This document shows, piece after piece, positions 6,111-21,612 of a stretch of 64,000 nucleotides of DNA. The notes under the pieces were generated by a model. That model was not told where the DNA came from, did no database searches, and saw only the letters and a list, made by a program, of their open reading frames with translations. The position numbers and the translations under genes are program-made. Source of the stretch: Gemmatimonadota bacterium (lineage in GTDB: Bacteria > Gemmatimonadota > Gemmatimonadetes > Gemmatimonadales > GWC2-71-9); contig JANMYS010000078.1 of assembly GCA_031382385.1 (NCBI GenBank), positions 71,415 through 135,414 on the forward strand. Reading direction: 5' to 3'. Numbering within the stretch: the first letter of the stretch is position 1; each line of letters begins with the position of its first letter.

Positions 6111-7937
6111 CTACTCCACCGTCACGCTCTTGGCCAGATTGCGCGGCTGGTCGACGTTGCACCCGCGCCGGACCGCCACGTAATAGGCGAAGAGCTGCAG
6201 CGGGATGATGGTCAGAATGGGCGTCAGCAGGTCCATGGTCTCGGGAATCGTGAACGTGGCCTGGGCCAGCTTCCGCAGCTGGTCATCGCCTTCGTTCTTG
6301 ATGGCGATCACCTGGCCACCCCGGGCCCGGACCTCCTCGACGTTCGAGACGATCTTGCCGTACACCGCGTCGCGCGGGGCGAGGAAGATGACCGGCATGT
6401 TCTCGTCGATCAGCGCGATCGGGCCATGCTTCATCTCCGCGGCGGGGTAGCCTTCCGCGTGGATGTAGGAGATCTCCTTGAGCTTGAGCGCACCTTCCAG
6501 CGCGACGGGAAAGTTGACCCCGCGCCCCAGGTAGAGGGCGTTGTTGGCCCGCCAGAGCCGATCGGACAGCGCCTCGACCTCATCGGCCCGGTCCAGGATC
6601 TCGCGGATCTGGTCCGGCAGCGCCCGCAGCGCCTGGATGATCTGGCGGCCCTGCAGGATGCTCAGGTGACGCAGCCGGCCAAAGCGCAGCGTGATCAGCG
6701 CCAGCGCGATCACCTGGCTAGTGAAGGCCTTGGTGCTGGCGACGCCCACTTCCGGGCCGGCGTGCAGGTAGATGCCGCCGTCGACTTCCCGCGCGATACT
6801 CGAGCCCACCACGTTCACGATGCCGAGGGTCCGGGCCCCGCGCCGCTTGGCCTCACGGATGGCCGCCAGGGTGTCTGCGGTCTCGCCGGACTGCGAAATG
6901 CCGATGACCAGCGTCCGGTCGTCGATGACCGGGTTGCGGTAGCGGAACTCGGAGGCGTACTCGACCTCGACCGGAATACGGGCGAGCTCCTCCAGCATGT
7001 ACTCGCCGATCAGGCCGGAGTGCCACGAAGTGCCGCAGGCGGTGATCACGATCCGGTTGATCTTCTTGATATCGTCATCGGTCAGGTTGAGCCCGCTGAC
7101 GCGCGCCGTGCCCTCCTCGTCCAGCAGATGCCCGCGCATGGTGTTCCGCACGGTATCCGGCTGCTCGAAGATCTCCTTCAGCATGAAGTGGTCGTAGCCG
7201 CCGCGCTCGATCGTGGCGAGGTCCCAGTCGATCTGGTTGACCTCCTTCTCGATCCGCGTCGCCGAGAGGTCGCGGACATGATAGCCACTGCGGGTAAGGA
7301 CGACCATCTCGCCGTCATCGAGATAGACCACGGAGCGGGTGTGCGCCAGGATCGCCGAGGCATCCGAGGCAACGAACCACTCGCCGTCGCCCACACCCAC
7401 CAGCAGCGGTGAGCCTTTCCGCGCCGCGACCAGCACATCCGGCTCGGACTCGGAGATGACGGCGATTCCGTAGGCACCATCGACCTCGCGCAGCGCCTGA
7501 GCGACCGCCTCTTCGAGATTGCCCTTGTAGCACTCCCCCACCAGGTGCGCGAGCACCTCGGTATCGGTCTCGGACTTGAAGGTGTGACCGCGCTGCAGCA
7601 GGACCTTCTTGATCGCACCGGAATTCTCGATGATGCCGTTGTGGATCAGCGCGATCTTCCCGCTCTGGTCCATGTGCGGGTGCGCGTTGATCGCCGTCGG
7701 CGGACCATGGGTGGCCCAGCGGGTGTGCCCGATGCCGATCGTGCCCTTCGGCATGTCCCGATCGAGCAGGCTTTCGAGCGCGGAGAGCTTGCCCGACTCC
7801 TTGACCACGACGAGGCCGCGCCCATTGAGGATCGCCACACCGGACGAGTCATAGCCCCGATACTCGAGGCGCCGGAGCCCCTCGATCAGCAGGCCAGTCG
7901 CCTGACGCGGGCCGATATAGCCGACGATGCCGCACAT
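6111..7937 (-). CDS. glmS: Glutamine--fructose-6-phosphate aminotransferase
   Basis: MCGIVGYIG N-terminal nucleophile, two SIS domains, C-terminal ...NLAKSVTVE; 608 aa. Confidence 0.97.
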   Translation of the reverse strand: MCGIVGYIGPRQATGLLIEGLRRLEYRGYDSSGVAILNGRGLVVVKESGKLSALESLLDRDMPKGTIGIGHTRWATHGPPTAINAHPHMDQSGKIALIHNGIIENSGAIKKVLLQRGHTFKSETDTEVLAHLVGECYKGNLEEAVAQALREVDGAYGIAVISESEPDVLVAARKGSPLLVGVGDGEWFVASDASAILAHTRSVVYLDDGEMVVLTRSGYHVRDLSATRIEKEVNQIDWDLATIERGGYDHFMLKEIFEQPDTVRNTMRGHLLDEEGTARVSGLNLTDDDIKKINRIVITACGTSWHSGLIGEYMLEELARIPVEVEYASEFRYRNPVIDDRTLVIGISQSGETADTLAAIREAKRRGARTLGIVNVVGSSIAREVDGGIYLHAGPEVGVASTKAFTSQVIALALITLRFGRLRHLSILQGRQIIQALRALPDQIREILDRADEVEALSDRLWRANNALYLGRGVNFPVALEGALKLKEISYIHAEGYPAAEMKHGPIALIDENMPVIFLAPRDAVYGKIVSNVEEVRARGGQVIAIKNEGDDQLRKLAQATFTIPETMDLLTPILTIIPLQLFAYYVAVRRGCNVDQPRNLAKSVTVE

Positions 7938-7946
7938 ACCGGGTCC

Positions 7947-9335
7947 TTACTTCGAGAAGAGTTCGCGACAGGCCGTCACCAGCGTCTCCGCTGCGGCCTG
8001 GGTGGGGGCTTCCGCAATAAACCGCACGATAGGCTCTGTGCCCGATGGTCGAACGTGCACCCATCGGTCGGACCACGCCAGTCGCAACCCGTCGCGCCGA
8101 TCCGGGACCGCCTCAGGGAAACGGGCCAGAAGAGCCGAGTACACTGGAGCTAAATCGTTGCCACGAGGTGCTTTGGCTTTCACAATCCGATACCGGGGTT
8201 GGCTTGCGACGAGCTGCGAGACCGACTGCCCCGTAGCGGCGAGGAGGTGCAGGATCAGTGCCACACCAACCGGCGCGTCCCGTCCGATATGCAGGGAGGG
8301 TAGAATCACCCCGCCATTGCCCTCGCCGCCGATGATCGCCCCCTCATCCCGGATGGTCCGGGCCACATTCGCCTCACCCACCGGCGCCCGAACGAACCGG
8401 GCCCCATTCAGCCGTGCCGCATCCTCCACCACCAGACTGGTCGAGAGGTTCGAGACCACGACCGGAGCGTTCGCCTGACCCGCAACGGGCGGAGCTGGAG
8501 CTCCGCCCCTACCAAGCATTGCCCGGACCGCGAGCGCCAGCGTGTAATCCTCGCCGATCGGTTCGCCCAGCTCATTCACCAGCGCCAGCCGGTCCACATC
8601 GGGATCAACCGCCAGGCCGATGTCGGCGCCACTCTCCCGGACAAGACGCGCCAGGTCGCCGATGTTCTCAGGCAGGGGCTCGGGCGGGTGGGGAAACTTC
8701 CCATCCGCCTCCAGGTTGATCCCGTGCACCCGGCAGCCAAGGCGTTCGAGCAACGGCGGAATGGCCAGGCCGCCGGCACCACGCACGCAGTCGAGCGCGA
8801 CGGTAAAACGGCGCCGTCGGATCGCGGCGACGTCGATCATGGGGAGCGCGAGCACCTGATCGAGATGCCGGGCGATCGCATCGCCATCCTCCCGCACGAC
8901 TCCGACGCCCTCCCAGCCGACCCGCGGCGGCCCCGCCTCGGCCAGAGCGCGTACCGTCGTGCCGTCGGCGCCGTCGAGGAAGATCCCGTCGGGACCCACC
9001 AGCTTGAGAGCATTCCATTCGATGGGATTGTGGCTGGCGGTGAGGATCAGCCCGGCACCGGCGTGATGATGCTCCACCGCCAGCTGCACGGTGGGGGTGG
9101 GGACGATCCCGACATCGATGACGTCAACCCCGACCGACATCAGCCCCGCGATCGCCGCGCGGGCGAACATCGGGCCGCTGGTGCGGGCGTCGCGACCGAG
9201 GACTACCAGCGGCGTGCCATTGGAGCGGGCCCACGCACCCAGGGCCGCGGCGTGACGGGCCACCAGCTCCGGGGTGAGATCCTTGCCGACGATCCCGCGC
9301 ATCCCGGACACACTGATCATGAGAGTATCAGACAT
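7947..9335 (-). CDS. glmM: Phosphohexomutase, GlmM-like (phosphoglucosamine mutase candidate)
   Basis: SVSGMRGIVG and TASHNP phosphoserine-loop motif. Lies 9 nt downstream of glmS. Substrate specificity is inferred from context. Confidence 0.8.
   Translation of the reverse strand: MSDTLMISVSGMRGIVGKDLTPELVARHAAALGAWARSNGTPLVVLGRDARTSGPMFARAAIAGLMSVGVDVIDVGIVPTPTVQLAVEHHHAGAGLILTASHNPIEWNALKLVGPDGIFLDGADGTTVRALAEAGPPRVGWEGVGVVREDGDAIARHLDQVLALPMIDVAAIRRRRFTVALDCVRGAGGLAIPPLLERLGCRVHGINLEADGKFPHPPEPLPENIGDLARLVRESGADIGLAVDPDVDRLALVNELGEPIGEDYTLALAVRAMLGRGGAPAPPVAGQANAPVVVSNLSTSLVVEDAARLNGARFVRAPVGEANVARTIRDEGAIIGGEGNGGVILPSLHIGRDAPVGVALILHLLAATGQSVSQLVASQPRYRIVKAKAPRGNDLAPVYSALLARFPEAVPDRRDGLRLAWSDRWVHVRPSGTEPIVRFIAEAPTQAAAETLVTACRELFSK
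8487..8513. repeat. 27-nt GC-rich palindromic element copy inside glmM coding sequence
   Basis: gggcggagctggagctccgcccctacc is the exact reverse complement of 21426-21452. It is translated in frame as GRGGAPAPP. Confidence 0.9.
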
Positions 9336-20597: not shown

Positions 20598-21422
20598 GTG
20601 CCCGAACTCCCCGAAGTCGAGACGATGGTCCGCGACATCCGGCCTGTCCTGCTCGGCCGCACCATCCGTACGGCGAGCCTATCCCACATCGATGTGCTGC
20701 GTGGCGTCACCCGGCCCCGCCTCCTCGCGGCGCTCACCGGCGCGACGGTCCAGCATGTCTTCCGCCGGGCCAAGCACGCCGTGCTCGACCTGGGCACGCA
20801 TCGGTTCGTGCTCCAGCCGGGCATGAGCGGCAACCTCCTCTACTACAACCGGCCGCTGACCGAGGCAGAGCGGAAGTACGCCGTCCTACGGACCACCCTC
20901 GACGACGGAACGCAGTTCATCTTCCGGGATGTCCGTCGCATCGGAACCCTGCTGCTGCTGAATCCGAGAGGCTGGGAGGCGTACGACCGGGCGCTGGGAC
21001 CGGAGCCGCTGGATCCGGCACTCACACCGGCCGTCTTCATGGCCGGACTCAGGAATTCACGCCAGGCCATCAAGAAGGTGCTGATGGATCAGCGGAAGAT
21101 CGTCGGGGTCGGGAACATCTACGCCAACGAAGCGCTCTTCGCCGCGGGAATCGACCCGTCACGACCGGCCAACAGGGTCCCGCCCGAACGCTACGAACGG
21201 CTCTACCACGAGACCCGTCGTATCCTCCAAGCTGCCATCGACGCCGAGGGCACGACGTTTCGCGATTATCGCACCGGCACCGGGCAGCCGGGCAACTTCC
21301 AGCTCGAGCTCATGGTCTACGAGCGCCAGGGGGAGCCGTGTCGCCACTGCGGCACCCGGCTGGCGGGAACCCACGATATCGACGGGCGGATCACGGTGTT
21401 CTGCTGGCGGTGTCAGGGGTAG
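20598..21422 (+). CDS. mutM: Formamidopyrimidine-DNA glycosylase
   Basis: GTG start gives (M)PELPEVE. C-terminal zinc finger CRHCG...CWRCQ. Confidence 0.93.
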   Translation: MPELPEVETMVRDIRPVLLGRTIRTASLSHIDVLRGVTRPRLLAALTGATVQHVFRRAKHAVLDLGTHRFVLQPGMSGNLLYYNRPLTEAERKYAVLRTTLDDGTQFIFRDVRRIGTLLLLNPRGWEAYDRALGPEPLDPALTPAVFMAGLRNSRQAIKKVLMDQRKIVGVGNIYANEALFAAGIDPSRPANRVPPERYERLYHETRRILQAAIDAEGTTFRDYRTGTGQPGNFQLELMVYERQGEPCRHCGTRLAGTHDIDGRITVFCWRCQG

Positions 21423-21425
21423 CTG

Positions 21426-21452
21426 GGTAGGGGCGGAGCTCCAGCTCCGCCC
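21426..21452 (+). terminator. 27-nt palindromic element copy forming a hairpin 4 nt after the fpg stop (no U-tract)
   Basis: ggtagGGGCGGAGCtccaGCTCCGCCC, a 9-bp GC stem. Exact reverse-complement copy at 8487-8513. Confidence 0.6.
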
Positions 21453-21456
21453 TTCG

Positions 21457-21612
21457 GTGGCGGTAGGCGGTAGGCGGTTGCTGAACGCTGCATGTTTGCT
21501 GCGAACGGCCAACGGCCAATGGCCATTGGCTGACGGCTGATGGCTGACGGCCGACAGCTGCCCCGATATCTTCCACGTATCCGCTGCCACCTGCCACCTG
21601 CTCGCTGCCACC
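21457..21612. repeat. About 155-nt spacer in continuous 7-nt register across five heptamer families
   Basis: ggcggta x3, gctgaac, gctgcat, gcgaacg, gccaacg, gccaatg, gccattg, gctgacg, gctgatg, gctgacg, gccgaca ... ctgccac x3. Contains the 16-nt perfect palindrome gccaatggccattggc (21515-21530). Confidence 0.9.

Follow-up and report, generated by a model that had tools for sequence, protein, structure and literature searches.

Sequence repeats that stand both inside an essential gene and in the spacer behind another gene raise the question of how they came to be there. Such a pair is found in a 64,000-nt stretch of DNA (here called the window) that lies within contig C84 of G000, a metagenome-assembled genome (MAG) of a soil bacterium of the Gemmatimonadales, phylum Gemmatimonadota (4.37 Mb, 175 contigs, 67.6% G+C). 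The 27-nt sequence GGGCGGAGCTGGAGCTCCGCCCCTACC occupies nucleotides 8487-8513 of the window (+ strand), within the phosphoglucosamine mutase gene glmM, and its exact reverse complement occupies nucleotides 21426-21452, behind the DNA glycosylase gene fpg. A match search of the window agreed with the preliminary description of this pair; no further match with up to three mismatches was found in the window, and none in 100 shuffles. The 27-mer is very probably one of the repetitive extragenic palindromes (REPs) that bear a GTAG tag, mobilized by a cognate REP-associated tyrosine transposase (RAYT), and the copy in glmM an old in-frame insertion in a loop of domain III of the enzyme.

The REP-1 family

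The 27-mer belongs to a dispersed family, named here REP-1, with the consensus GGGTAG-GGGCGGAGC-TCCA-GCTCCGCCC, a unit of 27-28 nt with a perfect 9-bp stem and a 4-nt loop. Copies were searched for across G000 using a 22-nt core and the whole 27-mer with up to two mismatches, with the reversed pattern as a control. The genome-wide search for the 27-mer that the preliminary description had proposed returned 40 copies (reversed control, 0), while the core was present in 27 exact and about 15 near copies (control pattern, 0). Of about 44 copies, essentially all have the tail CTACC(C) behind the core; read on the opposite strand, this tail is the GTAG head. Since nearly every copy continues with CTACCC, the unit on the other strand is GGGTAG followed by the perfect stem with its 4-nt loop. 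The family consensus adds a 28th base, C, which is present in 36 of the 40 genomic copies and absent from the copy in glmM; the identity between the two copies of the window does end abruptly on both sides, as had been noticed. Three intragenic matches with three mismatches (C47, C126, and C146:63322) have no CTACC tail and were therefore set aside as chance resemblances.

The copies of G000 include six head-to-head inverted pairs with the GTAG ends outward and spacers of 22-116 nt, three to four head-to-tail tandem clusters with periods of 38, 48, and 72-74 nt, and about 17 singlets, as against the six doublets; tail-to-tail dimers were not found in this genome. A reading of the tandem clusters as CRISPR arrays was ruled out because the would-be spacers are repeats too and the majority of copies stand alone. 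Target-site duplications, which the preliminary description had suggested as a check, are not a feature of the G000 copies: none was found at 37 of the 40, three have a 2-nt match attributable to chance, and one long match lies inside a tandem array. Their absence is as expected for Y1/HUH transposition. Most sites are intergenic or just upstream of gene starts, and all but three copies lie outside coding sequences. When only stems of at least 9 bp and clustered families are counted, G000 has about 115 strong GTAG palindromes that form several subfamilies, about 5% of them intragenic. A generic detector for GTAG plus a 7-bp stem was discarded as non-specific, with 249 matches versus 280 in the reversed-genome control.

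The comparison set for the genus consists of 39 genomes, in which the congeners bear labels from G003 to G053. REP-1 was found in 13 of the 39, at 1 to 40 copies each, with the variation concentrated in the hairpin loop.

The RAYT gene and its surroundings

A search of G000 with the Pfam family Y1_Tnp gave three matches. The one on contig C54 is a 166-aa open reading frame (ORF) that includes the motifs RRRLPHW, HVHLVV (the HUH motif), and WQPEYYDRVIR, of which HVH and YYD were read by eye. It passes the NF047646 model for REP-associated tyrosine transposases (80.2 bits, cut-off 80) as well as PF01797 (27 bits, cut-off 23), and its best match in the Protein Data Bank (PDB) is the E. coli TnpA_REP (4er8_A, E = 1.3e-6). 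Three REP-1 copies are located to the left of the gene and three to the right, in inverted orientation and with the GTAG ends outward; the C54 locus has the arrangement of a REPtron. Homologues with 51-61% identity are present in 11 of the 38 congeners. Those of G019 and G051 again adjoin REP-1 arrays, and GTAG-headed palindromes of other sequence (GTAGGGGCGGGGCT..., GGGTAGGTCAGGC..., GTAGCGCCCGAGCG...) flank the homologues of further congeners. In G047 the homologue (G047:C59:5935-6408, L152) has an in-frame TGA, and the REP-1 copies in glmM and valS of the same genome are decayed.

By homology with the TnpA_REP enzymes of E. coli, Stenotrophomonas maltophilia, and Marinomonas (PMC3333891, PMC8266576), the C54 RAYT, predicted to be a Y1 HUH enzyme of the IS200/IS605 superfamily, would mobilize, or would have mobilized, REP-1 as single-stranded hairpin DNA. 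Most of the copies would settle between genes and few in coding sequences. The few that did so probably survived because of a length that keeps the frame (27 nt, or nine codons, in glmM and in a kinase gene discussed below), a frame free of stops, and a flexible surface loop or linker as the site. The preliminary description had proposed a mobile palindromic unit of small size that coding sequence can accommodate, a view supported by the approximately 40 copies, the GTAG tag, and the putative cognate RAYT with its flanking REP arrays.

G000 includes two further Y1_Tnp-like genes. A GTAG palindrome of another kind, GGGTAGGGGTCGACCG-C-CGGTCGACCCCTACCC, flanks the one at G000:C7:28124-28411 (L011). 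The other, at G000:C113:10355-10702 (L009), scores highest with Pfam (67 bits) and lies between inverted repeats of 48 nt, which are 85% complementary to each other and similar to sequence found beside REP-1 copies on C170.

The copy in glmM

The glmM gene (7947..9335, - strand) encodes a 462-aa archaeal-type phosphoglucosamine mutase that includes Pfam domains PGM_PMM I-IV and passes TIGR03990, the model for archaeal-type GlmM (487 bits, cut-off 439). Its REP-1 copy (8487..8513, - strand) has the structure GGTAG-GGGCGGAGC-TCCA-GCTCCGCCC, agrees with the consensus at 27 of 27 positions, and takes up nine codons. The sense strand, GGT AGG GGC GGA GCT CCA GCT CCG CCC, is translated as GRGGAPAPP, the peptide given in the preliminary description, which corresponds to residues 275-283. 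These residues are part of a hypervariable loop of domain III (8460..8516, - strand; residues 274-292, LGRGGAPAPPVAGQANAPV) located between helix 263-274, with the conserved sequence ...GEDYTLA(x)A(x)RA(x)L, and strand 292-296, with the conserved sequence NLSTS.

An alignment of about 120 orthologues identified the segment as an insertion in this loop, as had been surmised, and showed that the length of the loop depends on the clade, sister families having 7 aa, other genera 10-12 aa, and this genus a hypervariable 14-29 aa. Compared with the closest solved structure, PDB 1wqa, the protein has an 11-residue insertion exactly at the loop. An AlphaFold2 model (pTM 0.88) has residues 275-291 as coil, with pLDDT values below 50 at positions 277-287. 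On translation the copy would lengthen this disordered loop of domain III by nine residues; the insert is presumably neutral, and GlmM presumably continues to function. The hexamer GCTCCG of the REP 3' arm recurs where the loop ends, 21 nt further downstream (window 8463-8468; GCTCCGGTC). This recurrence could be due to chance or could be a microhomology trace of the insertion.

The history of the copy was followed in a glmM tree built with the loop removed, in which G000 belongs to the well-supported clade (G047,(G043,(G000,G044))). The glmM of G044 carries REP-1 at the same codons with 25 of 27 positions matching, and the two substitutions weaken the stem. The G047 loop matches REP-1 at 18 of 27 positions without gaps, as against a third-position identity of 58% over the whole gene, and loop lengths are identical in G000, G044, and G047. 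The G043 loop includes a REP-like 27-mer with three mismatches and the tag on the opposite side, plus indels, which may be a flipped or rearranged REP-1. The insertion is real, because it is present in the independent assemblies G000 and G044; it has been inherited by at least two species and predates them. The relatives of this GlmM in public records are all named Gemmatimonadales MAGs.

A different palindrome was observed in the glmM orthologues L031, L058, L063, and L069, in which a 9-10-bp perfect hairpin, GGGGCCCGG-TTTGT-CCGGGCCCC, lies about 20 codons past the loop. It is derived from the codons of the conserved sequence G-A-R-F-V-R-A-P and is not an insertion. The glmS gene (6111-7937, - strand) adjoins glmM, which is directly upstream of it.

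The copy downstream of fpg

The fpg gene (20598..21422, + strand) codes for a formamidopyrimidine-DNA glycosylase with the Pfam domains Fapy_DNA_glyco and H2TH. It ends with TAG at 21420-21422, and the 27-mer begins 3 nt later. This copy has the 28-nt consensus form, GGGTAG plus the palindrome (21425..21452, + strand), and the two arms of its 9-bp stem are 21431-21439 and 21444-21452. The preliminary description regarded it as the terminator hairpin of fpg. A hairpin does follow the stop codon, but the role was not upheld: the REP is followed by TTCGGTGG, a terminator scan gives no call, and the copy is not a canonical intrinsic (rho-independent) terminator because no T-tract comes after the stem.

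REP-1 is conserved at the orthologous site downstream of fpg in G043, and in G044 a heptamer array is found there. Presence and absence are seen when filled and empty sites are compared, but as the spacer has been rebuilt from heptamer arrays the insertion boundaries are unreadable. The presence/absence at this site, together with the patchy distribution of REP-1 in the genus, suggests that the element is mobile. The window, too, has heptamers arrayed in phase right after the fpg REP (21457-21612), namely (GGCGGTA)n, (CGGCCAA)n, and (GGCTGAC)n, and the same heptamers with a GCTGAATGCTGAACGC motif flank other REP-1 copies at C5:26443, C106:38115, and C61:15939.

Other intragenic copies

On contig C163, REP-1 is located in a gene for a Ser/Thr kinase with a transmembrane segment and a PD40 domain (Ser/Thr kinase-TM-PD40). 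It forms part of the linker that joins the kinase domain to the membrane helix and is read as GRGGAPAPP, in the same frame as in glmM. The copy in valS (C68:46344) is read as AGGAGAPPLP just before PPPNVT...HMGH, and the Pfam match spans it. Other GTAG subfamilies are found in frame in G000 at a second site of valS, in a gene like that of the Pol III alpha subunit (dnaE), in a Zn-dehydrogenase gene, and in a kinase paralogue. Each intragenic copy of G000 has Pfam domains on both sides. Neither of the two orientation-A intragenic REP-1 copies (glmM and kinase) has the 28th consensus base, the repeat match being 27 nt or nine codons in both, in agreement with a length filter. Of five independent in-frame REP-1 copies, four are read in the two frames rich in Gly, Ala, and Pro. 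A rule that only these frames survive was abandoned, and the preference is a trend only, because the valS copy of G051 is read as VGAELQLRPY.

Two of these protein families have further features. The Pol III alpha-like gene of C106 (- strand) has an open frame of about 1100 codons that spans C106:31355, where the REP is read as TGRIYAAPT, and the same protein includes three in-frame GTGNGE...SPFPVP inserts that are inverted GGGAACG-type heptamer arrays read as peptide. The Ser/Thr kinase-TM-PD40 beta-propeller family has about 20 paralogues in G000 (for example on C126, C112, C40, and C163), often in tandem, and similar numbers of paralogues in congeners.

Recurrent insertions at three protein sites

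The GlmM loop, the kinase linker, and the N-terminal loop of valyl-tRNA synthetase (ValRS) were compared among the congeners, and all three carry different palindrome families or independent insertions. In the GlmM loop of G009 and G052, of G004, and of G016, there is a two-tier hairpin of about 55 nt, GCCCCTCCCCCGG-CCCCTCCCCAC-NNN-GTGGGGAGGGG-CCGGGGGAGGGGC. The two-tier hairpins in glmM fold at -63 to -76 kcal/mol, with z = -5 to -7 relative to other segments of the same genes. The family is dispersed, with four to five sites per genome (L164-L178, in G052, G009, G004, G003, and G017); its copies lack the GTAG tag, and no transposase was found beside them. Inside genes it is translated as PLAPSP...GEGAGG. 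The full 42-nt palindrome of G009 was tried and rejected as the family unit, being unique in the genome; the family is recognized only by its inner 27 nt and its two-tier architecture. The GlmM loop of G048 has yet another element, a member of the GTAG-type family GTAGG[G/C]GCCGCAC-AGCT-GTGCGGC[C/G]CCTAC, which is present at eight sites with compensatory changes in the stem. The copy in glmM has the form GTGG...CCAC, at a place where GTAG would be a TAG stop in that frame. On the glmM tree, the palindromes of this loop require at least four independent events, and the loop has perfect hairpins with stems of at least 9 bp at about 25-50 times the density of the remaining glmM sequence.

The kinase linker of the 89%-identical G043 orthologue includes an element, GTAGGGGCCGCATATATGCGGCCCCTAC or GGTAGGGGCCGCATATATGCGGCCCCTACC, in the frame and place that REP-1 has in G000, and the same element is carried by a kinase paralogue in G000. 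The G009 orthologue (L048, G009:C264) has inverted in-frame heptamer arrays, (GGTTGGGC)n ... (CCAATCGC)n, at the juxtamembrane position (VGRLGGWAARGANRPIAQSPNR). In ValRS the N-terminal loop has a baseline length of 14-16 aa. The clade of G000 carries a REP-1 there that has decayed in G043 and G047. An independent REP-1, full-length and read in a different frame, occurs in G051; the loop of G053 includes a REP-1-like sequence, and that of G048 other repeats. No convincing target motif or microhomology shared by the insertion points was found.

Origin and persistence of the glmM insertion

G000 is a MAG in 175 contigs, and short repeats can confuse assemblers, so that a contig mis-join or a repeat misplaced within glmM must be considered. 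Both flanks, however, are halves of one gene, in frame and 80-96% identical to orthologues over the full length; loop lengths are the same in the three genomes compared above; and G044, another species that was assembled independently, has the same REP at the same codons. An artefact of this kind is extremely improbable and is in practice excluded by the G044 copy. That the stem-loop itself has been selected, for instance as a translation pause at the boundary of domains II and III or in the processing of a glmM-glmS mRNA, is very unlikely, although unrelated palindromes of very low folding energy (-64 to -76 kcal/mol, z = -5 to -7) do occur at the same spot and the G000 copy is at consensus while that of G047 has decayed. 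Such a function is hard to reconcile with the facts that in the majority of congeners the loop is free of any notable hairpin (z about 0) and that the stem has decayed in both G044 and G047. In addition, the loop is absent altogether from sister families, like inserts are found in unrelated proteins, and the G000 loop as a whole is unexceptional in folding energy (z = -1.0).

A further model extends the reading of the glmM copy as a mobilized REP-1 rather than replacing it. It regards the loop as a preferred target, in which hairpins insert into, or replace, existing hairpins or retained motifs, and we consider it possible although somewhat short of an even chance. It would account for the recurrence by different families at all three sites and for the density of hairpins in the GlmM loop; since only about 5% of the GTAG palindromes of G000 are intragenic, random hits on one loop should be rare. 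After excision, IS200/IS605-type elements leave their target motif intact and use it again, with GTAG as a guide (PMC8266576). On the other hand, the insertion points have no target motif in common, the two-tier hairpin family has neither GTAG nor a known transposase, and a strong tolerance filter, under which few parts of such proteins other than these loops would accept inserts, predicts an equal enrichment within the gene. Targeting or replacement and a tolerance filter are not distinguishable by the recurrence of sites, and no new mechanism is required on present evidence. The more general idea that permissive loops of essential proteins are re-usable landing pads, where hairpin repeats insert at the place of a resident hairpin or motif and replace one another, is less likely than not. 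If it were true, transposon turnover instead of point mutation would shape the length and sequence of loops in housekeeping proteins such as GlmM, ValRS, and membrane kinases, and the copy of G000 would have stayed perfect beside its decaying sisters because the resident RAYT had re-inserted or converted it.

Several points weigh against the reading of the glmM copy as an old REP-1 insertion mobilized by the C54 RAYT. This protein clears the NF047646 cut-off by 0.2 bits only, its identity to 4er8 is low, and its activity is a predicted one. G000 is a MAG, with 2.3% contamination in its 175 contigs. The exact boundaries of the insertion are not reconstructable because the loop is hypervariable in all relatives. 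Finally, the G000 copy agrees with the consensus at 27 of 27 positions while the apparently homologous copy of G047 has lost 9 of 27. If the latter is indeed homologous, the perfect state of the G000 copy does not match plain neutral drift, and re-insertion, conversion, or constraint are possible explanations.

Comparison with known REP systems

Families of GTAG REPs were described by Di Nocera, De Gregorio, and Rocco in 2013, together with REPtrons, head-to-head dimers, and the coexistence of several REP families in one genome (PMC3733652). The biochemistry of RAYTs of other species includes cleavage at CT or CA beside the hairpin, with GTAG as a guide (Ton-Hoang et al. 2012, PMC3333891; Corneloup et al. 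2021, PMC8266576). REP-1 is like these published systems (PMC3733652, PMC3333891, PMC8266576) in having a palindrome beside GTAG, tens of copies, head-to-head dimers, one RAYT with inverted flanking REPs, no target-site duplication, the presence of more than one REP family in the genome, and some in-frame copies. It differs from them in its host phylum, which is new, and in its stem sequence, and its RAYT is a predicted one. None of the papers searched deals with REPs in Gemmatimonadetes, and PMC6006769 does not mention the phylum. The REPIN-RAYT systems of Pseudomonas (PMC8049555) share with REP-1 the inverted doublets, a single-copy RAYT, and a long-term population close to a master sequence; in contrast to REPINs, the REP-1 copies are mostly singlets (about 17) and not doublets (six). 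In form, REP-1 is closest to the perfect-palindrome 'group 3' of S. maltophilia.

Rickettsia palindromic elements (RPEs) such as RPE-1 are about 100-150 bp long, and in this respect REP-1 (27-28 nt) and the two-tier family (about 55 nt) are unlike them, both being shorter. RPEs, the classic case of in-frame insertion, are palindromic and occur in frame in essential genes, at surface-exposed positions compatible with function (cited in PMC3733652). The short RPE-4/-6 units belong to a CGTC-tagged class without a dedicated transposase (PMC3733652).

REPs located wholly within ORFs are most numerous in Opitutus terrae, where they include one in a Ser/Thr kinase gene (PMC3733652). The intragenic REPs and dimers of that study add 7-30 residues to housekeeping proteins and to replication and repair proteins (PMC3733652, Additional file 3); GTAG is mutated to GTGG in an O. 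terrae family and in many families rich in intragenic members, and the recB genes of Xanthomonas have different REPs at about the same site (PMC3733652). Flexible linkers and loops were proposed there as the reason why such insertions are neutral (PMC3733652). A Ser/Thr kinase is likewise a host in the present case, and the GTGG variant is that of the G048 glmM copy. The glmM gene is not among the published targets, while a phosphomannomutase of R. conorii carries an insert at another position (PMC3733652).

The results described here extend GTAG REP/RAYT systems to Gemmatimonadales and offer a clean, dated case of a REP inherited in an essential gene, perfect in one species and decaying in its sisters. 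The three orthologous sites with alternating families are a natural data set for weighing targeted against filtered insertion and for the share of hairpins in loop evolution. For annotation, inserts of this type yield low-complexity segments rich in Gly, Ala, and Pro and spurious antisense ORFs in GC-rich genomes. Intragenic GTAG REPs as such have been known since 2013, and each component of the present reading has a precedent in print (PMC3733652). Compared with the O. terrae set, the insertions described here recur at three sites, in a 39-species genus, and by at least three palindrome families; this recurrent colonization of the same loops is the less ordinary part of the findings, one that is both worthwhile and testable.

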